Positions 6,210 to 60,038 of a stretch of DNA of 64,000 nt are shown in pieces. How positions within the stretch are numbered: position 1 is the stretch's first letter; every line of letters begins with the position of its first letter. The notes under the pieces were generated by a model. That model ran no database searches. It had not been told where the DNA came from and saw nothing but the letters and a program-made list of their open reading frames with translations. Source of the DNA: Escherichia phage EC150; the sequence record ON210137.1; one strand, written 5' to 3'. A program made the position numbers and the translations under genes.

Positions 6210-6575
6210 TTGATACGCCTAAAATACGGCTAAAAATTAAGCGTATCATGGCTGCAGGCCGCGTCGTTCCTGGATTCTTCTTTTTAAAATTGGTACACCC
6301 TTACGTCATGATACGTCATGGTTTTTTATCCGTATCAGTGTACAGCCCTTGCCGCGCCTGGCTTGTACATTAATCTTACGGATGATACGGATAAAACTGG
6401 GCATCGTTATATATAAAACTCCAAAAATAAATAAACTCCATTTTAAAAACATTTATATTAATTTTTTTCATATCCTCATACTTATGTTAATTTATATATT
6501 TAACGTATCATCCGTAAGATATAAGTAAAAACAAAGACTTGCGGCAATACGGATGATACGTCATGATACGCTTCA
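6210..6575. repeat. repeat-flanked AT-rich element, copy A
   Basis: Multiple copies in both orientations of CGTATCATCCGTA / TACGGATGATACG (9-mer unit TCATCCGTA) flanking a ~100-bp AT-rich core (6400-6500); homologous to 22190-22460. Confidence 0.6.
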
Positions 6576-6774: not shown

Positions 6775-7981
6775 AATTTGCACTATGGGATTTGCACTAT
6801 GAGTCAAGATTATGTAGCAATGCCTGAAGACTTTGAAGACCCGCGATTTGCAGAGCATAATCAGGCATTATTCGATGAGTTCATTGACCTTGTTATTCAG
6901 GGCCATGACATGCGCGCAGCTTTTGCACTAGTATTTGGCATGGAGGTTGCGACCGATAACTACACTGGCCAGCGAGTCCTCTGCACGCAACGCAATCCGT
7001 ACTACAAGATGCGCTACAAAAAGCGTATGGAAGAGATGCCATTGAAGGAATTGTGGAGCGTAAAGAGTTCCATCCACAATTTAGTGAAGCTTGTGCGTGA
7101 TCCAGAAGTCGCGGCGTCAGCCAAGCTTAATGCCATTCGTGAACTGAATATCATCTACGGCATCACGATGATTGATGAGAATGGCAATAGTAAAATGGGC
7201 CGTTCCATGGACGATTTCTACAAGGATTTTGGAGAGGCAGCCAAAGAGGGTGAGCAATTCTCCCGCCACTAGCCAATTTGCACTATAAAACGGCCCTAGA
7301 ACACATTTTCTCCACTTCTAGGGCCATCGGTAATACGACGGGGAAGGTTACAACCATAAACGCGTTAGAAAGTGTATTATTATAAGTCATCTTTTAGTCA
7401 CTTTACGTAACAATTTACGACCTTCCGCCGTCCAGTCGAACGACTCCACCAGCAGATTTGCACTATAACCTAAGACGATGCGCCCTTTCTCGTTATCGAC
7501 CCGCCAACAAGTCTCGAATAGCATTCGATTTGCACTATTAACTATCGCCGCAACGCGCGCTGGGTAAGCGCAATTTGCACTATGGTCGTAAAGGGATAAG
7601 GTGCGACCACTTCCGATGGACAACGTAGCGATGAGAATAAGCGTATTCATAAGCCACCAATTTGCACTATGAAAAGCGACCCCGAAGGGCCGCCATTCGA
7701 TTAGATGATCTGGAATGTGTATGACTTGTTGCCGAACTCGAAGTTCAAGCGCCCAGCTTCCTTAAGCTTCATGCGGAAGCGAATGTGCTTGCTATCCGGT
7801 AATCCCAGCGCGATGAAAGCTACGCGGACCGATTTGAACTCGCCTACACCCTCGACCATAACGCCGTTACGGGTGAGACGCTTTTGCGCCACTTCCTTAT
7901 TATCCCAACTTTTTGCAATGCCTTCGCTATTCGAACGGCGATGGGAAGAAGTTCCATTTTGCACTACGCAATTTGCACTAT
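6775..7981 (+). repeat. array of 9 same-orientation copies of an AATTTGCACTAT-like 11-12-mer
   Basis: Copies at 6775, 6790, 7275, 7456, 7528, 7572, 7659, 7956 and 7970; irregular spacing; two copies overlap the start of the 6799 gene. Confidence 0.6.
6799..7272 (+). CDS. hypothetical protein (157 aa), possible regulatory or DNA-binding protein
   Basis: ATG embedded in a motif copy and downstream of the near-consensus promoter; function is inference only. Confidence 0.5.
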   Translation: MSQDYVAMPEDFEDPRFAEHNQALFDEFIDLVIQGHDMRAAFALVFGMEVATDNYTGQRVLCTQRNPYYKMRYKKRMEEMPLKELWSVKSSIHNLVKLVRDPEVAASAKLNAIRELNIIYGITMIDENGNSKMGRSMDDFYKDFGEAAKEGEQFSRH

Positions 7982-8692: not shown

Positions 8693-8832
8693 TTTAAACT
8701 CCTAGTTGGGAGAGGCGTTAACGACCTATTCGTTAACTCATCCCGTCCCGATATGAGTACATTATAATATAGTGTAGAAAAAAGTAAAGCACTTTTTCGA
8801 TAAAAATGCGATAAATTATTTTATCTTTTTCC

Positions 8833-8860
8833 TTTACTTCTTCGTACACTCGCGTATACT
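8833..8860 (+). promoter_or_regulatory. sigma70-like promoter, duplicated element copy 1
   Basis: TTTACT, 16-bp spacer, TATACT; whole ~45-bp unit (CTTTACTTCTTCGTACACT ... TTTATATCGAGA) repeated at 9229-9272. Confidence 0.4.
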
Positions 8861-8915
8861 TGTTTATATCGAGACGGGCGATGGCCTTCCTTCTACTAGC
8901 ATCGGGAGTTTTATT

Positions 8916-9218
8916 ATGACTACTTTAATCTCTTCTATCCTTACTTACGACGAAGACCGTTTAACCGTTCGTTCTCTTATCGCCGCCGTTAACGCGGAAC
9001 TAGAATCCACCATCATTAAGGTCCGCGCGGTCGCTTTCGTCGGCCTTTCCTTCGACGATATTAAGTATGCCGAACGTAGCGCCATCCGCTTCGCGAAGAC
9101 CGACGACGAAGCCGTTACCCTTATCGAGACGGTTACGCCGCGCGGCGAAGCGTTAATTATCGTCGAGTATATCGACGTAGAGGGCGATAAGGCTTATAAA
9201 TATTTTATCGCAAAATAA
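8916..9218 (+). CDS. small acidic protein (100 aa)
   Basis: ORF with its own copy of the duplicated promoter; CpG-rich codon usage unlike the rest of the window. Confidence 0.5.
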   Translation: MTTLISSILTYDEDRLTVRSLIAAVNAELESTIIKVRAVAFVGLSFDDIKYAERSAIRFAKTDDEAVTLIETVTPRGEALIIVEYIDVEGDKAYKYFIAK

Positions 9219-9229
9219 CGAAAAAGTGC

Positions 9230-9258
9230 TTTACTTCTTCGTACACTAAGACTATAAT
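9230..9258 (+). promoter_or_regulatory. sigma70-like promoter, duplicated element copy 2
   Basis: TTTACT, 17-bp spacer, TATAAT; same unit as 8832-8874. Confidence 0.4.
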
Positions 9259-9325
9259 GTTTTATATCGAGAGGGGAGAGGAAGCGAATAGGTCGCCTTC
9301 CCGCCCTCCCAACTAGGAGAATATT

Positions 9326-9616: not shown

Positions 9617-9781
9617 TACCCTTCCGTTACTAATAGGCCGCGCTTAGTCGCGGCTTTTCTTCGTCCCTATCCCGATGCGCGTCTACGCGAAAACTCCTTT
9701 ATCCTTCCCTTCGTCGTCGCATAATCTTCTTCGAGATGCTCCTTAGTTCGCATAACAGGTATTACGTTAAATGGAGAACAT

Positions 9782-9854
9782 CGCGTAAGTCCTTGTTTTA
9801 TATAGACACCTATATCGGACCGTTAGGGCGGGTCGCGTAAGTCGTTGTTTTATA
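9782..9854. repeat. 21-bp direct repeat, 2 copies
   Basis: CGCGTAAGTCCTTGTTTTATA at 9782 and CGCGTAAGTCGTTGTTTTATA at 9834. Confidence 0.4.
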
Positions 9855-9979
9855 AAGGCGCAAAACTTTCCCTTCGTTCCGAACTAAAACGAGAAATGTG
9901 CCGACCCTTCGCCCGAAAATAGTACGTATGCGAAATTACATGCATCTCGAATAATCCCTCCCGATATTATCCTACACGC

Positions 9980-10042
9980 AATCATTCGCTTTCGAATCAT
10001 TATGCTTCATATTGTTATGCGTCGAATCATTCGCTTTCGAAT
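9980..10042. repeat. 18-bp direct repeat, 2 copies
   Basis: AATCATTCGCTTTCGAAT at 9980 and 10025. Confidence 0.4.
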
Positions 10043-21081: not shown

Positions 21082-22002
21082 ATGACGATACCAATCAGCA
21101 CGTTTCCTCTATCTGGACAAACGCCAGTATTGCCTGCTGTATATGCTAACGGTTTGGCGATTGTTTCAGAATTTACATCCGATAAAAACCTGATTGTTCC
21201 ATTGAGTCCGCCATTGGCATCTGGATACAATTCAGTTGGTCAATTCTTTATGATCGGTAATGATGGCGATTCTACCAGCAAGCCGAATCTGACACTTTCA
21301 GTTCCCAAAATGAACATAACAGACGTGCAGACTGGTTTAACTGCATCTACAATCACCATCGCTTTTGGAGAAGCAGTGATTATAGGCATGGAGTCTGGAG
21401 GGTCCAAGAATGCTGTCGCCGTTAAGGTAGTCAAATCCAGCGGCAACCAATACACGTTACCAGCGGCAACGGCTTCTGTTCTCGGCGGCGTCAAGATAGG
21501 AAGTGGCATAAGTGTTGCAGGTGACGGTACAATTAGTGTTACTCAATACTCGTTACCGATTGCATCAGCATCAACCTTGGGTGGCGTAAAAGTAGGAACG
21601 ACACTATCAATTGATGGTTCTGGAGTTCTTAATGCTGCTGCAAGCAATGTGCAAAACACAAGCAATAGTGTAAGCAATCCTCCGACAACTCTGGTGAATC
21701 TGGCAACATTAAACCTGCCTGCAGGGAAATGGCTTGTGACAGCAAGTCAGTTGACTGTCGCAACAGAAGGAGTTCAAGCGAATACCGGAATTACAGTAAA
21801 ATTGTCAACAAGTAATTCAGATATTACGGATGATGCATTCACGATGTCTGCTGGCATTCGGGCTGCAGGTCGTTTCGGCGGCAATATTCCAACAAAGATA
21901 ATTACTCTTGCCGCGCCTGGCAACGTGTATCTAAACTATCAATGCACAGACGCATTGACATCTACCGTTTACGGACAGATCACCGCAATTAAGTTGAACT
22001 AA
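21082..22002 (+). CDS. structural protein with fibre-like repeats (possible head fibre or decoration)
   Basis: Repeated ...A(T/S)AS(V/T)LGGVK(I/V)G... units; Gly/Ser/Thr-rich; GAGG RBS. Confidence 0.55.
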   Translation: MTIPISTFPLSGQTPVLPAVYANGLAIVSEFTSDKNLIVPLSPPLASGYNSVGQFFMIGNDGDSTSKPNLTLSVPKMNITDVQTGLTASTITIAFGEAVIIGMESGGSKNAVAVKVVKSSGNQYTLPAATASVLGGVKIGSGISVAGDGTISVTQYSLPIASASTLGGVKVGTTLSIDGSGVLNAAASNVQNTSNSVSNPPTTLVNLATLNLPAGKWLVTASQLTVATEGVQANTGITVKLSTSNSDITDDAFTMSAGIRAAGRFGGNIPTKIITLAAPGNVYLNYQCTDALTSTVYGQITAIKLN

Positions 22003-22012
22003 AGAGGAAGTT

Positions 22013-22150
22013 ATGCAAAAGATTATGCAGTCACGTTACGTTAAAGTGCGAAATATTAATTGCAACTCTTTGCTTTCTTGGAAATGGGCTGTTTACGACT
22101 CGATGCTGATTGGCGTTTTAGTTGCTGGAGTGCTTTTTAATATTCACTGA
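22013..22150 (+). CDS. small hydrophobic peptide (45 aa)
   Basis: ATG 5 nt after AAGAGGAAG; product has hydrophobic C-terminal half; below the size cut-off of the ORF track. Confidence 0.3.
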   Translation: MQKIMQSRYVKVRNINCNSLLSWKWAVYDSMLIGVLVAGVLFNIH

Positions 22151-22189
22151 ATCGCCTGGCAATGGATTGCCGCAGGATTTCACGCGTAT

Positions 22190-22460
22190 AATGACGTATC
22201 ATCCGTATCAAGTAAGTAGTTGTTTTCAAAAGAATCTTACGGATGATACGGATGATACGCGTTGCCGCGATACTTTATAGGAATTCAAATAAATTAATTT
22301 AAAATTATATATCTAATTTAATTTTATTTTTTTATAAACTCTTATATATGAAAAGTATCCGTATCATCCGTATCATCCGTAGCACACCAGTGATAGCGCG
22401 GCTTATACACCGATACGGATAAAAATACGCCTCATTTTATCCGTATCATCCGTATCACAC
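22190..22460. repeat. repeat-flanked AT-rich element, copy B
   Basis: Tandem and inverted copies of TCATCCGTA / CGTATCATCCGTA around an AT-rich core (22280-22350); homologous to 6210-6575. Confidence 0.6.
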
Positions 22461-22574
22461 TAATTAAGGCGCGCGGCTATATCGGTTGTTATACATATTC
22501 AAACCATAATTATTGTTTGCCTAAGTTTTTTTCATTAGATATAATACACAATACTTATTTGAGGGTGGATGCGA

Positions 22575-36874: not shown

Positions 36875-36934
36875 AATATTGCTTATAGACTCCTTATAGA
36901 TTATAATTTGTTGATCAGATATAAGGAGTCTATG

Positions 36935-37660
36935 ATGGCAGAAAAGTTAACCCAACTTACAAGCCCCAACCAAACTGACAAATCAAGTATGTTTGCCGCG
37001 CTTCAGGGAATGCTGGACCGTGGCAAGTATACCACTGATGGCATGATTCCTGCGCAAGTAATATCTTATGACCGCAAGAAAAATTTAGCAGTCATAAAAC
37101 CTGTTATTCATTTCGTAAGTCTTGATGATAAGCCAGTGGAGCGTCAACCTTTGGTGTCAATTCCGGTACTGGCAATCGGCGGCGGCGGATTCGTGATCAA
37201 CTTCCCTTTGAAGGAAGGCGACTTGGGCTGGATATTCGCTGGCGACCGCGAGTTGTCGACATTCCTTGAAGAATTGAAGCCGGCCGCGCCTACCAATGGC
37301 CGTGTAAAAACTTTCGCTGATGGACTGTTCATACCGGATGTATTCCGAAAATACACCATAAGCGGAGAGGATGCAGGGTCAATGGTAATTCAATCCCTCA
37401 GCGGCGCTGTGAGAATTGCACTAAGCGATGACTCAATAAACATAATTGCGTCTGCTGGAGTAAACGTCAAGACCCCGATAACCACTATCGATCAACAATT
37501 GATAGTAAATGGAAAGGCAACATTCAATGGTGGGATAGAAGGCAAAGAAGGAACGACGGCAACGCTTCCGACTGGCACAACGGTCGGTGGCATTGATGTA
37601 TCCACTCACGGGCATATCGGTAACGGGCCTGGAAACAGAACTGGGAATATGATAGAATGA
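36935..37660 (+). CDS. baseplate spike/central-spike-like protein
   Basis: ATG 6 nt after AAGGAG; Gly-rich VLAIGGGGFVINFPLKEGDLGWIFAGDRE segment. Confidence 0.45.
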   Translation: MAEKLTQLTSPNQTDKSSMFAALQGMLDRGKYTTDGMIPAQVISYDRKKNLAVIKPVIHFVSLDDKPVERQPLVSIPVLAIGGGGFVINFPLKEGDLGWIFAGDRELSTFLEELKPAAPTNGRVKTFADGLFIPDVFRKYTISGEDAGSMVIQSLSGAVRIALSDDSINIIASAGVNVKTPITTIDQQLIVNGKATFNGGIEGKEGTTATLPTGTTVGGIDVSTHGHIGNGPGNRTGNMIE

Positions 37661-48972: not shown

Positions 48973-49046
48973 TTTGTATTCCTCTGTTTCGTTTCGATGA
49001 AGTAATTATGACTCATCTTCCATGACAAGTCAAATTATTTTTGATA

Positions 49047-53873: not shown

Positions 53874-54415
53874 TATTTACTCCAGATGTCATATACGCCA
53901 ATTTGTTGGCAGACTTTGTGCAGTAATATTACGTCGTCTAATGCACGGTGCTTCTGTTCATATTTTCCGAAATATAATTCATACAGCTCTTGAAGCTTAA
54001 CTCTTCGGCCAAAAATAGGCAAGGTTTGCTCAACTGTACATATGTTTATTTCTGGAAAATTAACATCATCAAGCGTAAGTCCTTCGCGCTGTAGTGCATA
54101 ATCAAGAATGTTTTTATCGAACGCATGGTTGTGCGCGATAGTTGCATCAGTCTTCTTGAAGATTTCTTTTAGCTGCGGGACGAAATTGATGAACGGTGGA
54201 TTGCACTCAAGGTCTTCATTAGTTAATCCGGTAATCTTTGTGATGATTTCTTCAATCACAATTTCAGGATTAATTATGAATTCAAACGTTTCAAGAATCT
54301 CTTTGCCGTCTGTCAACAGACCTGCAAATTCAATAGGACGCGGCTGCATCCCAAGCGGCGCTTTCGGGTGCACGGTCAATCCGGTTGTTTCGAAGTCATA
54401 AGGGAGAAATAACAC
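53873..54415 (-). CDS. DnaQ-like 3'-5' exonuclease (DEDDh)
   Basis: Exo motifs YDFETTGL, AHNHAFD and HRALDD. Confidence 0.8.
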   Translation of the reverse strand: MLFLPYDFETTGLTVHPKAPLGMQPRPIEFAGLLTDGKEILETFEFIINPEIVIEEIITKITGLTNEDLECNPPFINFVPQLKEIFKKTDATIAHNHAFDKNILDYALQREGLTLDDVNFPEINICTVEQTLPIFGRRVKLQELYELYFGKYEQKHRALDDVILLHKVCQQIGVYDIWSK

Positions 54416-54426
54416 ATTAGCCTCCT

Positions 54427-54453
54427 ACAAAAAGGCCGCCCATTAGGACGGCC
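54427..54453 (-). terminator. putative terminator after accessory operon
   Basis: Imperfect hairpin GGCCGCC/GGACGGCC preceded on the plus strand by an A-run (U-run in the minus transcript). Confidence 0.35.
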
Positions 54454-54469
54454 ACAGATTCACGATTCG

Positions 54470-55021
54470 TTATACGGTGTACGGAGTACCGTCTTGATTC
54501 AAGCGCACGATAAACTTAAGGTCGACGCCAATAATATCACGCGTGTCAAAGATCACATAGTTGTAGCGACGTTGACCAGCAATGTTAGGATTGGTGTGGG
54601 AGTCGGTGATGACTTCCTGCGCAACCTGAATATGTTCGTTCTTAAAGAACTCACGCCATTCGGCAAGTTCTGCGGCAGTCACGTGCATGCCAAGGTGGCT
54701 AACCTGATTATCGTGCGCATCGATGTATTCAATGTTTTCGTTAATCCAGTTGCAGCCCTTTGTGTAGTCAAGGATTTCAAGCTCAAGAGGCTTACCAGCG
54801 CTGCCATCAGTTCCGTTTCCAGCTTGATAGTTGAAGCGTAAATCAGCTTCGTTGGTGCAATCGCCGCGCTGGCCTTTAAAGTCATCAGATTCAAATACGC
54901 GACCAGTAGCAACAACGTGATCATGGAACCATTCTGTCAGGCCGATTTTAGCCAGGAAATTCTGTGCGCGCTGAGCACCTGGGATTGACAGGGCGATTTG
55001 TTCAATTTTAAAATGTGGCAT
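54470..55021 (-). CDS. VOC/glyoxalase-fold protein
   Basis: FKIEQIALSIPGAQRAQNFLAKIGL and VSHLGMHV fit the two-module pattern of glyoxalase-like proteins. Confidence 0.4.
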   Translation of the reverse strand: MPHFKIEQIALSIPGAQRAQNFLAKIGLTEWFHDHVVATGRVFESDDFKGQRGDCTNEADLRFNYQAGNGTDGSAGKPLELEILDYTKGCNWINENIEYIDAHDNQVSHLGMHVTAAELAEWREFFKNEHIQVAQEVITDSHTNPNIAGQRRYNYVIFDTRDIIGVDLKFIVRLNQDGTPYTV

Positions 55022-55117
55022 TTTGTTTCCTTAATTAAATATTATTGATTAATTACTGTGTTATCTTCGTCCTGTTTCTTTTCAGGAGCGGGTGTGACAA
55101 CTTCAAATGTTCGTGAT

Positions 55118-55801
55118 TTATTTCCCAAATGGAATATCAGTACCAGACATAAAGCGCCATGCGCCCGTAATTAAGATATGGCGAATGAAGTCAGCAATTA
55201 CTTGCGGCTCAGTCTCCAATCCATTCATCAGTGCCTTTTTCTGGTATTCAGCAGCATACTCAGGAGTCCAGCCGCGAGTCGCGCAAACAGCATCTTCAAT
55301 CTGTTTGGACATGCCAGTACCACGTAGCTTGTTAGGACTAATAGAGAATACCGTGATGCCGTATTTAGGCGTAAGCTCGTGAGCCATCTGCTTGCTAATC
55401 ATAAGCGCAGCAGCCTTGGATGCATTATAACACAAGCTGGACGTCATAGGAATGTGCGCAGCGTTAGAAACGATATTGATCACAAAACCTTTGTTGTCGA
55501 TAAGACTTTTCAGCGCGGCTTGAGTCGTGTTAACGAAAGAGAATGCGTTGGTGTGCATAACGCGATTGAACTCTTCGTAGTTAACATCTTCGAACCAGTT
55601 GTTGGAGTTGACGCCAGCGCAGTTGATCAAGCCTTCTACATCATATGGGCTTAAAATTTCTTTCATCTGTTTAGCGTCGCGGACGTCATATCCGTATGCT
55701 GAATCGATGCCAAGCACGTTATGACCGTAAGCGCCAAGGGTGTCAAAAATAGATTTACCAAGACCGGAATTGGAACCTGTTACAACAATTACTTTTTTCA
55801 T
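55118..55801 (-). CDS. short-chain dehydrogenase/reductase (classical SDR)
   Basis: TGSNSGLGK cofactor-binding motif, NCAG, catalytic YNASK. Confidence 0.8.
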   Translation of the reverse strand: MKKVIVVTGSNSGLGKSIFDTLGAYGHNVLGIDSAYGYDVRDAKQMKEILSPYDVEGLINCAGVNSNNWFEDVNYEEFNRVMHTNAFSFVNTTQAALKSLIDNKGFVINIVSNAAHIPMTSSLCYNASKAAALMISKQMAHELTPKYGITVFSISPNKLRGTGMSKQIEDAVCATRGWTPEYAAEYQKKALMNGLETEPQVIADFIRHILITGAWRFMSGTDIPFGK

Positions 55802-55866
55802 TTATTTATCCTTTTTGGACTTCGTTTCGATGAGATAAATATAACTCATCGAAACGCACAAGTAAA

Positions 55867-56739
55867 CTATTTATTGAAATTAATATTATGGGTGTTGACA
55901 AGACGTTCACACATGGCGCTGTAAACACCATCGTCGTGTATTGAGTCTTCGTGCTTCAGGCCGCTGATTGCGAAGCGTGTAAGCTTGACAATCTTAAGCT
56001 CGAACAGATGCCACATGTGGTAGTCTTCCGGCGTTTTCAACGTTACGCCATTAGGGAAAAGCACCTGCATAACCTGGCCTACCATCACAGCGTTATCGCC
56101 ATAGACAGCGTTGCGCTCACGAAAGGTTGCTGCCATTGCATCAAGAATATCGGCGGCAGTTGCCGGAGATTGTTCAACTTCCACAGCCTTAGTCTCTTCT
56201 TGCCCTGTTGCGCTTGGATCAATTGCTAATTGTTGCACCACTTCACCTGCCTTGCAAAGATTAAATGTAAAAGCGATTTTATTTTGAGCAACGGAATTAT
56301 AATACAATGCTTCATCTTGCATCCGCGCGAGTACGTCTTGTCGGTCGTCGAATACGTTGATGATTCGATAATCGCCGTGGCGCAATGCGTGCGATAGCCA
56401 TGCAGATTTCATAATAGTTGATGGACGTTTGTCGCCATAGTCTCTCATCTTGATTGTAAATTCATCAAAAGGAAAAACATTGTCCAGACGTTCAAAAGTC
56501 ACTTGTCTGTATTTTTCTGGCCTTGCAGTCCAATATTCAACCGCCTCACCGCGAAGAGATGCCGACTCTACTGCTGATGCAATGTGAGGATAGAACTGAT
56601 CATAACCAATACCGCTATGATAGTCATCATAGTCTGACAACGGACCTGCCACCTTGATGCGGTCTAAGCGCCAACGGTCATCAAACAGCGTTCCGTCAAG
56701 GTCGAATACGTTTAAGATTTCGCTGTTTTTAATGCTCAT
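55867..56739 (-). CDS. HAD-superfamily phosphatase (T4 Pnk phosphatase-like) fused to an uncharacterised C-terminal domain
   Basis: VFDLDGTLF motif I; later DDRQDVLARM resembles the Pnk phosphatase domain; C-terminal ~140 aa unassigned; 4-nt overlap with upstream ThyX-like gene. Confidence 0.65.
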   Translation of the reverse strand: MSIKNSEILNVFDLDGTLFDDRWRLDRIKVAGPLSDYDDYHSGIGYDQFYPHIASAVESASLRGEAVEYWTARPEKYRQVTFERLDNVFPFDEFTIKMRDYGDKRPSTIMKSAWLSHALRHGDYRIINVFDDRQDVLARMQDEALYYNSVAQNKIAFTFNLCKAGEVVQQLAIDPSATGQEETKAVEVEQSPATAADILDAMAATFRERNAVYGDNAVMVGQVMQVLFPNGVTLKTPEDYHMWHLFELKIVKLTRFAISGLKHEDSIHDDGVYSAMCERLVNTHNINFNK

Positions 56740-57539
56740 CCTTTTGATACTCCATCTTTAGCAACTGGATTGTTGGTGATTGGCATCGCACTCCAAAACT
56801 GGATGCGCAACTCTTCTTGCTGTGACGTGGTATCCATCCAATCACGATACCAAGGGCAATGGGCTTTGCCATGACGAGGAAACGCGCATTTACCCATACC
56901 GATGCATTGCGGCTGTAATAATGGATTTGCCCACGGGTGCACCTTGAGGACTTCCGCAACCATTGCGCGGAATACTTCTTGATACTCGCCTTGAGTGCGC
57001 GTGCACAAGCGGTTTGACGCCATCTGCTGCAGCGTGCGCAAGTTGAACTTTGCCATGATATGCGTTTGCATATTAGAAGGCAACACGGCACGTGCATCTT
57101 GAATCTCTGCGCCAGCCGCGCGAAGCTCTTGATACAAAGCATCGATAGTCGCCATCGCATCATCCCACTTCTCTGCCAGTTCAGCGGCCTTCTCGTCATG
57201 ACGAGTCCATCCCTTTGGATCATCCTCTGGGTAAGTGAATTTAGCAGGACGAATCGCATCAAATGCAGACGACTCCTGAGCGCGGCTGGTGCGTTCTTGA
57301 TATGCGCCTGTGCGTGTGCGTACCATCTGATGGGTCATGTTCTTTGATACATCTGTGATATCAAAGATATAGTCCACAAAGTCAAAAGGCGACTTGATTG
57401 TATCAAGCATGTAGCGCCAATGCTCTTGCTTCTCTGATTCCGTCATCTCAGAGACAGGCTTACCAGTCATGCGCGTGTTCTTTGTTTCCAGCAAAAGGTC
57501 AAGTGCATCTTGGGTGTATCGAATTAATTCAACTTTCAT
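56736..57539 (-). CDS. thyX: flavin-dependent thymidylate synthase (ThyX)-like protein, divergent
   Basis: 267 aa; QMVRTRTGAYQERTSR aligns with the ThyX signature region but His of RHR is Thr; C-terminal TRTQGEYQ...HPW resembles the ThyX SHAQ.E...CPW region. Confidence 0.65.
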   Translation of the reverse strand: MKVELIRYTQDALDLLLETKNTRMTGKPVSEMTESEKQEHWRYMLDTIKSPFDFVDYIFDITDVSKNMTHQMVRTRTGAYQERTSRAQESSAFDAIRPAKFTYPEDDPKGWTRHDEKAAELAEKWDDAMATIDALYQELRAAGAEIQDARAVLPSNMQTHIMAKFNLRTLQQMASNRLCTRTQGEYQEVFRAMVAEVLKVHPWANPLLQPQCIGMGKCAFPRHGKAHCPWYRDWMDTTSQQEELRIQFWSAMPITNNPVAKDGVSKG

Positions 57540-57552
57540 TTTAATTATCCTA

Positions 57553-57999
57553 TTAACGGTAATTCACTAGTTGCTGATCACCAGAGAAGGTGCAATGATA
57601 AACGAATTGTGCGTTATAAAGCAACTGAAAACTTTTCTTTGGTTCATTATTAGAACTCATCGATGTAAAGATTTCTGCACCAGAACGGTTTTCACCAATC
57701 AGATTAATAAAGCCGCCAGTTGAACGAGGCTGGACGAAAGTGAAACGTTGCATCCACGGAGTACGGTTGGCACCTTTCCCTGTGAATCCCTGAATCTGAA
57801 TATTCAGACCTTCTTGCTCGTTCACACCGATGTAAGTGGTAATCTTCGCACCAGTCGTTGCTGCGGTCTTACCGTCCATCGCTTCGCAATCGTAAACAGC
57901 GATTGAATCGGAAGTACGGATGGCAGCTTCAGTCGCTTCCATATACATGGTGCCGAGAATAGCAGTTGCGGCAAGCGCGATTCCAGTGATTCGTTTCAT
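57553..57999 (-). CDS. secreted protein of unknown function (148 aa)
   Basis: Signal-peptide-like N-terminus MKRITGIALAATAILGTMYMEATEA; two Cys in mature part. Confidence 0.5.
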   Translation of the reverse strand: MKRITGIALAATAILGTMYMEATEAAIRTSDSIAVYDCEAMDGKTAATTGAKITTYIGVNEQEGLNIQIQGFTGKGANRTPWMQRFTFVQPRSTGGFINLIGENRSGAEIFTSMSSNNEPKKSFQLLYNAQFVYHCTFSGDQQLVNYR

Positions 58000-58064
58000 T
58001 TCCGTTTCCTCTATGAGTTCTGCTTCAATGATTAAAGTATACGCCCATTGAAGCAGAAAGCAAA

Positions 58065-59060
58065 TTATTTATTAGCAATATAAGCAAATTTTTGATAGTT
58101 ATTTGCTTTGATGAGTTTTTCAACTTCAACAAGGTCATGAGCGACGTCATCAAGCAAAATGTTGCGCCAGGTAGCAAATCGACCGACACTAAACACGTTC
58201 AAATCCATGGTCAGCTGCAGGAGTAGGGCGTGTCGCAAGTCTTTCGGAATGTCGACAATCTTGCCATATTTCTGGTCGACCTTTTCAACTTCTTCAAGAG
58301 CAATGTCACTCCATGAGAGGCCAAAAGCTGTCAACACTTCGTCGACTTCTGCGCGCAGCTTGATGTCACGGTAACGAGTGATGCCGCCAGCGGCTTCAAC
58401 TGCAGCTTCACTCACGCTGACCAAAGGAATTGTTTCAATGATCAGTGTGTCGCCAGTGATTGATGCGCGGTAAGTTCTGACGGAGTAGTCAGGGAAGTAA
58501 ATTGTTTGATACAAATCACACTTACGTTTAATCTTAAAGCGGTAAACGCGAATGTTTGCTTTATCAAATGAGAAATCAAGCTTTTGATCAATCCCAGCCA
58601 GCTTCATCATGACTGGCAGCGGCGACGTGTTGATGATTGGCGTCTCGCTATAGCCGCAAAGAGTATCAACCGGAGTATTAAAGAATATGCGGTCACCCAG
58701 TTTGTCGACAAGCTGATCATAAAAGTCATCAGGCGCAATATAACGTGTTGCAGTCTTAAGCTTCATGATTGAACGGCTGCCAAACTGATTGGTGACCTTC
58801 ATGGAATACATATTGGCAAGGTTGATTGGGCAATGGTCGTGGTAGTAGTTGCCGCGAAAATACACAGCCTTGTCAACTGTCACGGCCTTGAAAGGGATTC
58901 CGGTAATACGGCTTACTTCTTCGCCGCGAAAGCGTAGAAGCGCCTTGTGCTGTTGCGCTCGTTCCCCTGCTTCGTACACAATAGAGTTCGGGAAGTGACA
59001 CGCTGTGATAAGTCCTGCCAGTCCGCCGCCGATAATCATTACAGGTTGTTTCATGTTCAT
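58065..59060 (-). CDS. FAD/NAD(P)-binding oxidoreductase
   Basis: N-terminal Rossmann dinucleotide-binding motif VMIIGGGLAGL; 331 aa. Confidence 0.65.
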   Translation of the reverse strand: MNMKQPVMIIGGGLAGLITACHFPNSIVYEAGERAQQHKALLRFRGEEVSRITGIPFKAVTVDKAVYFRGNYYHDHCPINLANMYSMKVTNQFGSRSIMKLKTATRYIAPDDFYDQLVDKLGDRIFFNTPVDTLCGYSETPIINTSPLPVMMKLAGIDQKLDFSFDKANIRVYRFKIKRKCDLYQTIYFPDYSVRTYRASITGDTLIIETIPLVSVSEAAVEAAGGITRYRDIKLRAEVDEVLTAFGLSWSDIALEEVEKVDQKYGKIVDIPKDLRHALLLQLTMDLNVFSVGRFATWRNILLDDVAHDLVEVEKLIKANNYQKFAYIANK

Positions 59061-59137
59061 TTGTCCTTTGTGGGTGATATGAGAAGTATAATAGCTAAAT
59101 TATTTTACAGCAACAAGTCATTTTATTTAGTACAGAT

Positions 59138-59165
59138 GAAAAAAGACCCACAACAAGTGTGGGTC
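59138..59165 (-). terminator. rho-independent terminator after Lys/Ala/Glu-rich gene
   Basis: 8-bp stem GACCCACA/TGTGGGTC, 5-nt loop, U-run in the minus-strand transcript. Confidence 0.5.
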
Positions 59166-59192
59166 AATTACCGCTGCATAACCGTCCTAAGG

Positions 59193-60038
59193 TTATTCCG
59201 CTTGATCACCGTCTTCGGCATCTTCGTTGGATTCAACATCGACAAACTCGATGTGACCCATCTCTTCCAGCTTGCTCAGGTAGGAGCGAACTGAAGCGCC
59301 AAACAGTTGATCTTTAACTTTTTCGCCCAGCTCATCGATAGACTGTGCCACGCCAACTTCGCCTTCTTTGATCGCCGCCAGAACGCGTCCACGGGTGGAA
59401 TGCTCTTGCGGCTGACTCAGGCCATTGCCAGTGTAGATGAAGTGAGTAGCTTTTGCACGACGCTGACCATTGGCCTTTTTGGCAGCCTTACGTTCTGCGA
59501 TGGCTTTGCGACGTTCTTCAGCTTCTTGCTTACGCTGTTCTTTCTGCTGTTCTGCAGCTTCTTTCGCCGCAATCTTAGCAGCTTCACGCTCTGCCTTGCG
59601 TTTCGCTTTGGCTTCTTCTTTGGCCTTCTCTTTTTCGGCCTTCGCTGCAGCACGGGCTTGATCACGCTCTGCTTTCTTAGCAGCAGCTTGTTCAGCTTTC
59701 AGGCGCTTGGCTTCTTCTTTAGCCTTTGCCTTTTCGATTTCTTTCGCTGCTTTAGCGGCTTCACGCTCTGCTTTCTTAGCAGCAGCCTTTTCTGCACGCT
59801 CTTTGGCCTTCTTGGCTGCTTCTTCAGCACGCTTCTGAGCCTTCTCATCAGCAGCCTGCTTGCGTTTCAGGGCAGCTTCTTCACGCTTGGCTTGTTTTTC
59901 CTGCTCACGCTTCTGGCGTTTTTCTTCGGCTTCTTTCTTTTTAGCCAGACGTTTTTCTTCAGCCACGCGACGACGTTCTGCTGCAGCTGCTTGTTTTTCT
60001 TCTTTAGATAATACTTTGATTGCTTCGGCCATGTTCAC
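59193..60038 (-). CDS. Lys/Ala/Glu-rich low-complexity protein with acidic C-terminal domain
   Basis: About 190 aa of charged helical repeat (EEKR..KAK.EA...) then a ~90-aa C-terminal domain ending in an acidic tail. Confidence 0.6.
   Translation of the reverse strand: MNMAEAIKVLSKEEKQAAAAERRRVAEEKRLAKKKEAEEKRQKREQEKQAKREEAALKRKQAADEKAQKRAEEAAKKAKERAEKAAAKKAEREAAKAAKEIEKAKAKEEAKRLKAEQAAAKKAERDQARAAAKAEKEKAKEEAKAKRKAEREAAKIAAKEAAEQQKEQRKQEAEERRKAIAERKAAKKANGQRRAKATHFIYTGNGLSQPQEHSTRGRVLAAIKEGEVGVAQSIDELGEKVKDQLFGASVRSYLSKLEEMGHIEFVDVESNEDAEDGDQAE

Follow-up and report, generated by a model that had tools for sequence, protein, structure and literature searches.

We examined two inverted repeats, hereafter sites A and B, that lie between minus-strand genes in a 64,000-nucleotide stretch of the Escherichia phage EC150 genome (ON210137.1; the whole stretch is called the window). 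Both sites are probably RNA hairpin stems built round internal sigma-70-type promoters, a reading to which we give a probability of about 0.6; they would be composite promoter/stem-loop cassettes of the type known as PeSLs (promoter-early stem-loops) from the T4-type phages RB49 and phi1 (Arbiol et al. 2010, PMC2839356; Comeau et al. 2014, PMC4122927). The window belongs to an E. coli myophage of the genus Wifcevirus, whose genomes are about 68–72 kb; WFH and ECML-117 are among its relatives. The elements of the two sites are as follows:

58018..58058, minus strand: hairpin of site A, with the 5' arm at 58058-58046 (TTCTGCTTCAATG), a 15-nt loop at 58045-58031 and the 3' arm at 58030-58018 (CATTGAAGCAGAA)
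58036..58064, minus strand: predicted promoter of site A, TTTGCT-N17-TATACT, with the -35 at 58064-58059, the -10 at 58041-58036 in the loop and the predicted start at about 58029, in the 3' arm
57997..58012, minus strand: Shine-Dalgarno (SD) sequence AGAGGA (58012-58007) and ATG (57999-57997) of a 148-aa ORFan gene, outside the hairpin of site A
55823..55856, minus strand: hairpin of site B, with the 5' arm at 55856-55845 (CGTTTCGATGAG), the loop TTATATTTAT and the 3' arm at 55834-55823 (CTCATCGAAACG)
55838..55866, minus strand: predicted promoter of site B, TTTACT-N17-TATATT, with the -35 at 55866-55861, the -10 at 55843-55838 in the loop and the predicted start at about 55831, in the 3' arm
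55799..55813, minus strand: SD AAGGA (55813-55809) and ATG (55801-55799) of an SDR/FabG-like gene, outside the hairpin of site B

The arms of site A are complementary at all their positions (13/13 nt, 100%), and those of site B form 12 perfect pairs around a 10-nt loop, extendable to 15 nt at 93% (14/15 pairs) with a 4-nt loop. A preliminary description of this DNA had reported two perfect inverted repeats of 12–13 bp at 58018-58058 and 55823-55856, intercistronic and directly upstream of ribosome-binding sites, and had proposed a calculation of their folding energies. We recovered the arms at exactly these positions. Each pair lies in a gap of 65 nt whose flanking genes are co-directional and on the minus strand (331-aa and 148-aa genes at A, HAD/PNK-like and SDR genes at B), and each hairpin ends 6–9 nt before the SD. 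The 64-kb window contains seven perfect stems of 12 bp or more with 3–35-nt loops, at 6 distinct places; 100 first-order Markov simulations, in which dinucleotide frequencies were preserved in expectation, gave an expected number of 0.09. Folding of the minus-strand RNA gave stable hairpins at both sites (-17.8 kcal/mol and z -5.9 at A; -17.4 kcal/mol and z -6.8 at B), and none of 200 dinucleotide shuffles folded as well as either of them (0/200). A search with the covariance models of Rfam 15 over 54000-60000, with E-values up to 1, returned no match at A or B.

On the coding strand both gaps present the same order of elements: a stop codon in an A/T-rich stretch, the -35, the 5' arm, the -10, the 3' arm, the SD and the ATG. 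Site A reads aaTAAtTTTGCT-TTCTGCTTCAATG-ggcgTATACTttaat-CATTGAAGCAGAA-ctcatAGAGGAaacggaaATG and site B reads aaTAGTTTACTtgtg-CGTTTCGATGAG-tTATATTtat-CTCATCGAAACG-aagtccaaAAGGAtaaataaATG. The two sites share their geometry, with the -35 directly 5' of the left arm, the -10 in the loop and a 17-nt spacing. We found 21 distinct sites of the promoter family (TTTRCY or TTGMYW)-N16-18-TATAHT in the window against 0.88 expected, a significance that is somewhat inflated since the pattern was composed after the gaps had been read, though the excess is still more than 20-fold. Those sites fall mostly in the intergenic 7% of the window, on the correct strand and 25–55 nt upstream of an SD and start codon, and a generic sigma-70 scan listed site B independently of the family pattern. 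With a promoter in each gap, the downstream genes probably have their own transcription starts. Good support for the promoter part of the cassette comes from the pattern family and from hexamers conserved across genera; promoter activity is predicted.

A long repeat straddling the -10 (13–15 pairs) was present at only 3 of about 24 promoter-like sites, namely A (13 pairs), B (14/15 pairs) and a third one, site C (14–15 pairs), which precedes the baseplate-spike gene. The remaining promoters had 4–7 straddling pairs, and 98 control TATAHT sites averaged 5.1. All three sites are internal promoters in co-directional gaps of 57–65 nt that contain no terminator, and their arms are unrelated in sequence (TTCTGCTTCAATG at A, CGTTTCGATGAG at B and ATAGACTCCTTATA at C). 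Site C comprises:

36879..36937, plus strand: site C as a whole, before the baseplate-spike gene, with the predicted promoter TTGCTT (36879-36884)-N17-TATAAT (36902-36907)
36885-36898 / 36920-36933, plus strand: hairpin arms of 14 bp, -20.9 kcal/mol as RNA

Within the 3' arm of site C lie the SD AAGGAG (36923-36928) and, at 36932, the first ATG; the annotation of relatives places the start at the ATG 36935. We predicted the accessibility of the translation initiation region (TIR) by folding long (read-through) and short (promoter-initiated) leaders. At site C it was 0.15 in the long leader versus 0.53 in the short one, with the AUG unpaired at 0.04 versus 0.60. Values at site A were 0.56 long versus 0.58 short (AUG unpaired 0.62 versus 0.58), and at site B 0.64 long versus 0.70 short (AUG unpaired 0.85 versus 0.81), with an SD unpaired probability of about 0.6 in both isoforms at the two sites. 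Masking of the ribosome-binding site was therefore rejected for A and B, since the long and short isoforms fold equally open and SD and AUG lie outside the stems. A translational mask of the kind described for T4 gene e fits site C in these modelled folds, and not A or B.

Related cassettes were found in the window and beyond it. The site B cassette has a paralogue upstream of a 507-aa gene:

48973..49046, minus strand: TTGACT-N17-CATAAT ... CTTCATCGAAACGAAAC, with a degenerate repeat of 5–7 bp only

Exact copies of CATCGAAAC occur in the window only at site B and at 48991, within this paralogue. We rejected CATCGAAAC as a genome-wide motif because it was not enriched (19 matches versus 20.4 expected with one mismatch). 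A homologue of the site B cassette (…GATGAGT, -10, …CTCATCGAAACGAA) that is clearer than this paralogue was observed at a different junction in a distant metagenomic phage (L088), after its counterpart of the 331-aa gene. Such copies at other junctions hint, on sequence likeness, that cassettes may move between junctions, as proposed for PeSLs.

We compared the three junctions in distant relatives, taken from IMG/VR and GenBank: slot A, which follows the 331-aa gene (protein identity 43–53% in these relatives); slot B, before the SDR gene; and slot C, before the spike gene. Since a locus search with the 331-aa protein alone returned close relatives only, an alignment-based search was used for slot A. 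The slot A promoter is kept in Pantoea phage Kyle, in Myosmarvirus and in metagenomic relatives, and the genes that follow it differ among relatives. Stems straddling the -10 were found there in four of them, with arms of unrelated sequence: 14 bp in L067 (TTGCCG, GTTTTTCTGTCTGA-ggagTAATATcacct-TCAGACAGAAAAAC), 12 bp in L069 (identical to L008; TTGACG-N17-GATAAT), 12 bp in L076 (TTTACT, GGATGGATTGAT...ATCAATCCATCC) and 9 bp in L088. None of these four shows a U-tract or SD masking. Short G/C-rich stem-loops within the spacer were found at slot A in Kyle, the Serratia Myosmarviruses and L081, and stems at other positions in L059 (over the -35) and in L096/L101 (downstream of the -10). Eight of the 12 promoter-bearing junctions had z of -3.9 or below against dinucleotide shuffles.

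At slot B, the Serratia Myosmarviruses keep TTGACT-N17-GATAAT, and more distant relatives have no intergenic gap. At slot C, Kyle has TTTACT-N17-TATAAT with the arms ACCTCTTACAGTA / TACTGTAAGAGGT and the SD in the 3' arm (0.00 unpaired), while in two Myosmarvirus variants the stems measure 16–17 bp and take up the -10 in their 5' arm and the AUG, 0.00 unpaired, in their 3' arm. L042 follows the same logic; in all of these phages the TIR falls within the 3' arm and the -10 lies in or beside the loop. Promoter and stem-loop composites at the same three junctions, with unrelated arms, argue for selection on structure.

The spacer stem-loop cassettes have an AGGA loop in common and differ in their stems. 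Compensatory changes were seen in 3 of 6 pairs (three sequences only), and in the same three sequences 94% of the stem-loop cells were paired, versus 17–33% with slid partners. Over 19 elements, the sense RNA was more stable than the antisense in 14 (mean difference -1.5 kcal/mol; Wilcoxon p about 0.01) and G.U pairs were commoner in the sense strand; some of these elements are inter-related, so that the bias gives modest support for a role at the RNA level. Within the genus, the -35, both arms and the -10 were identical at A and B in 12 Wifcevirus genomes, where the only changes were one base between SD and ATG at site A and one loop base plus the length of an A-run at site B. Site C varied in one loop base only over the Wifcevirus genomes. 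No relative of intermediate distance with alignable intergenic DNA was found, the next relatives being about 70% identical and in coding DNA only.

The arms of A and B would occupy the sequence-free segments of the promoter, namely the 17-nt spacer and the first transcribed bases, leaving the -10 in the loop; as these are the only such parts, this would account for the straddling. Host RNA polymerase arriving from an upstream promoter (about 59100) would transcribe both arms and produce a polycistronic RNA with a stable intercistronic hairpin. Polymerase starting at the embedded promoter would begin in the 3' arm and give an RNA without it, so the hairpin would form on read-through RNA only, because the local start, about 7 nt past the -10, falls inside that arm. 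On the read-through RNA of A and B, the hairpin may be a structural barrier: it would shield or set the 3' end of the upstream message, or partly attenuate or uncouple that message, and the embedded promoter would then re-supply downstream transcription. At site C, the read-through RNA would have its SD and AUG masked and only the locally initiated RNA would be well translated. A role of the A and B hairpins in the stability or processing of read-through RNA is plausible. The analysis shows the repeats and their non-randomness, the membership of the promoter family, the geometry, the predicted accessibility and the recurrence in relatives; promoter activity, start sites and the effect of the hairpin on the RNA are what we infer from the DNA.

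We also consider, with the odds somewhat against it, a broader proposal, in which hairpin-nested host-type promoters would be a conserved 'transcript-origin discriminator' over a large myophage clade (Wifcevirus, Myosmarvirus, Kyle and PB1-like phages), kept at three or more syntenic junctions with full turnover of the arms. Read-through and local mRNAs would then have different fates, with translation gated at the spike gene and an RNA-level effect without termination or masking of the ribosome-binding site at A and B.

The design as such is known from T4-type phages; what differs here is the phage lineage. PeSLs have been shown by reporters to have promoter and attenuator activities (PMC2839356); they fall into five positional subclasses and have an A/T-rich stop-codon region upstream and SD and ATG at the 3' end (PMC2839356, PMC4122927). 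Sites A and B resemble them as short intergenic cassettes that run from an upstream A/T-rich stop codon through a sigma-70-like -35 and -10 to a downstream SD and ATG, with a stable stem-loop overlapping the promoter; one PeSL subclass overlaps the -10, as at A and B. At slot A of the relatives, stems lie within the spacer, across the -10 or the -35, or farther downstream, a spread that mirrors the PeSL subclasses; there are also paralogous cassettes at other junctions, and variable ORFan genes follow slot A. A further PeSL feature is seen in the gap sequences GCTAATAAATAATTTGCT and TTCAATAAATAGTTTACT. The two systems differ in lineage, which here is Wifcevirus with its Myosmarvirus and PB1-like relatives and not T4-type; A and B are therefore taken as working like PeSLs and not as homologous to those of T4-type phages. 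They appear to differ also in number: PeSLs are a repeated motif family of hyperplastic regions beside ORFans that mediates gene shuffling, while only 3 of about 24 promoters here carry long stems and do not make up a dense repeat family. Promoter activity, terminator activity and mini-circle recombination belong to PeSLs, and the comparison here is one of sequence.

A second known design is that of the T4 genes e, soc, 49 and I-TevI, where the translation initiation region lies in an inhibitory hairpin and the hairpin structure includes a promoter (PMC3014915). Sites A, B and C resemble it in the position of the promoter: RNA begun at its predicted start would be missing the 5' strand of a hairpin that read-through RNA can form. 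At site C, and at the elements corresponding to it in Kyle, Myosmarvirus and L042, the SD and/or AUG are sequestered as well. At A and B, unlike in these genes, the helix does not include SD and AUG and no masking of them is predicted; the promoters embedded at A and B, and likewise at C, are sigma-70-like where those of T4 are late (gp55) promoters. Stable hairpins without a U-tract are also found between cistrons as mRNA stabilisers, e.g. the REP of malE-malF and those of the puf operon, which can set the differential stability of operon segments, and as T7 RNase III sites, which have about 20 bp with internal loops against the 12–13 perfect bp of A and B. To our knowledge, neither the REP and puf stabilisers nor the T7 RNase III sites enclose promoters. 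We found no description of such promoter/hairpin elements in the Wifcevirus literature.

Phage 14-1, a member of the same wider phage group, relies on the host RNA polymerase; 52% of its 50 mapped start sites are sigma-70-like, several of these promoters are active in E. coli, and about half of its genes are in at least two transcription units; internal starts of the sigma-70-like kind are numerous in that group (PMC10914365).

The preliminary description had taken the repeats for purely intercistronic RNA elements of one operon, acting in processing, stability or translational control, and under this explanation the promoter hexamers would be incidental. The hairpins are indeed stable, between cistrons and free of a U-tract, and intercistronic hairpins that stabilise upstream segments are well known, so that the intercistronic, non-terminator part of that description stands; direct translational control finds no support, given that predicted TIR access at A and B is the same with or without the 5' arm, and the embedded promoter hexamers had been overlooked. 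We hold purely RNA elements to be unlikely, as they leave unexplained a -10 in the loop and a -35 abutting the stem at all three sites, and also consensus hexamers at 16–18-nt spacing at the same junctions of distant relatives whose intergenic DNA is otherwise unalignable. The hairpins could instead terminate or attenuate upstream transcription, as proposed for the PeSL stem-loops, one of which cut lacZ expression as strongly as rrnB T1 (PMC2839356), so that terminator and promoter would form a pair insulating neighbouring units. A 9-bp G/C-rich stem with a U-tract straddles TATAAT in the metagenomic relative L012 (936-979, upstream of its homologue of the 331-aa gene), forming a canonical terminator hairpin round the -10, and counts for such a pair. 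Sites A and B have no U-tract on either strand (the sequence past the stem is CUCAUAGAGG at A and AAGUCCAAAA at B), nor do their counterparts in L067, L069, L076 and L088, and canonical intrinsic termination is thus unlikely, as the preliminary description had also judged. Their loops of 10–15 nt and A/U-rich stems speak against it too, as does the presence of canonical terminators elsewhere in the phage: a terminator scan did not list either hairpin, though it listed those at 59165-59145 and 54453-54434. An intrinsic (Rho-independent) terminator at A or B was rejected for want of a U-tract, and we regard termination or attenuation in general as fairly unlikely.

It is quite unlikely that A and B are translational masks of the T4 gene e type on the 148-aa and SDR genes, with read-through RNA poorly and promoter-initiated RNA well translated. 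The design is that of site C and of T4 genes e, soc, 49 and I-TevI (PMC3014915), and a hairpin base at -19 and -22 from the AUG could lower ribosome standby binding; SD and AUG are outside the stems, however, with equal predicted accessibility in both isoforms, and the SD is also free in the slot A counterparts of the relatives. We see little likelihood in an effect at the DNA level, i.e. cruciform extrusion or an operator for a dimeric protein that modulates the promoter. Such an effect would suit a repeat centred on the -10, and in engineered systems supercoil-driven cruciform extrusion has been shown to control a promoter. The half-sites at A, B and C are unrelated, which excludes a shared binding protein and led us to reject a common operator; perfect half-sites of 12–14 bp with 10–21-bp spacers are unlike operators; and the favoured sense RNA with its G.U pairs, like the 3' arm that tracks SD and AUG at site C and its counterparts, follows an RNA logic. 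Slightly more improbable still would be a lack of function: stems that are by-products of the recombination or duplication of promoter cassettes find some backing in the cassette paralogues (48973-49046 and slot A of L088 resemble site B) and in the many promoters without hairpins, but perfect stems of 12–14 bp are kept in every genome of the genus examined, distant relatives have re-invented stems of other sequence at these slots, and there are compensatory changes, so that we rate this explanation lowest of all.

Several points weigh against hairpins built round promoters as PeSL-type cassettes. The promoter pattern was composed after the intergenic regions had been read. Most promoters of the phage lack such hairpins, and the hairpin is therefore not required for promoter function. 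The stems are long, perfect and A/U-rich with 10–15-nt loops, in contrast to PeSL stems, which are commonly G/C-rich (polyG/polyC). At slot B, the Serratia Myosmarviruses have only a 5-bp stem-loop in the spacer. The flanks within the genus are nearly as conserved as the sites, so the invariance there says little and offers no covariation. At A and B neither a U-tract nor a predicted influence on the ribosome-binding site points to one specific job for the hairpin. Finally, we found no transcript data for Wifcevirus in the literature, the vB_Eco4M-7 paper included, and promoter activity and start sites are predictions.

Sites A and B belong to a run of minus-strand genes which, in order of transcription, encodes the 331-aa protein, the 148-aa ORFan, thyX, the HAD/PNK-like phosphatase, the SDR/FabG-like reductase and a 183-aa protein. 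The run is bounded by the following features:

59145..59165, minus strand: canonical intrinsic terminator upstream of the gene run, found by the terminator scan and annotated in the WFH and Mansfield records
about 59113-59085, minus strand: predicted promoter TTGCTG-N17-TATACT after that terminator, which would supply read-through RNA across site A
54434..54453, minus strand: canonical intrinsic terminator closing the run past the SDR and 183-aa genes, found by the terminator scan and annotated in WFH and Mansfield

The 331-aa gene corresponds to PHROG 4828, and the annotation of one relative describes it as similar to UDP-galactopyranose mutase. The 148-aa product has a signal-like N-terminus (MKRITGIALAATAILGTMYMEA) from which secretion is predicted, and it had no family match in Pfam or PHROG. 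Over 54000-60000 the identity to phage vB_EcoM_WFH is 96.6%, 28 phage records span this region at an identity of 93% or more, and the gene order around sites A and B is fixed within the genus. Gene content differs among Wifceviruses at 55022-55117, between the SDR and 183-aa genes, where the window has a 96-nt gap and Mansfield, Bas98 and ECO71P1 have 1–2 extra small ORFs; the variable spot is thus not at the hairpins themselves.

Other repeats and promoter-like elements were observed elsewhere in the window. The 12-mer GTATCATCCGTA is present in 10 copies versus 0.18 expected, clustered in direct and inverted orientation at 6377-6559 and 21825-22454, and the copies include inverted repeats of 13–16 bp (6503-6561 and 22195-22259). 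The second cluster is located just upstream of a long run of plus-strand structural genes that starts at 22569. The copies could be regulator binding sites, or a replication or packaging signal. The early-region promoters at 8693-9325, of which two are divergent, have the form TTTACT-N16-17-TATAAT or TATACT; after them come long 5'-leader hairpins, conserved and rich in G/C, with CCCAACTAGGAG at their end right before the start codons. We also noted 385 nt without a called gene (9617-10001), with the direct repeat CGCGTAAGTC(C/G)TTGTTTTATA(T/A)AG, and a 10-bp perfect inverted repeat between convergent genes (7292-7325; GGCCCTAGAA-N14-TTCTAGGGCC) without an obvious U-tract.

If the embedded promoters are active, the 'accessory operon' would be three nested transcription units. 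The SDR/FabG-like gene and the predicted secreted ORFan would then be transcribed from separate starts, as moron-like genes are expected to be. Wifceviruses are already in use for O157 detection and biocontrol, and the cassettes would offer compact natural parts for phage engineering, with a promoter and an insulator or mask in 65 nt. For annotators, hairpins without a U-tract inside phage operons may mark internal promoters. PeSL-like cassettes and the T4 gene e design would be extended past T4-type phages, to a lineage that depends entirely on the host RNA polymerase, and what we find most interesting is that the design appears to be held at the same junctions over deep divergence while the arm sequences have turned over completely.

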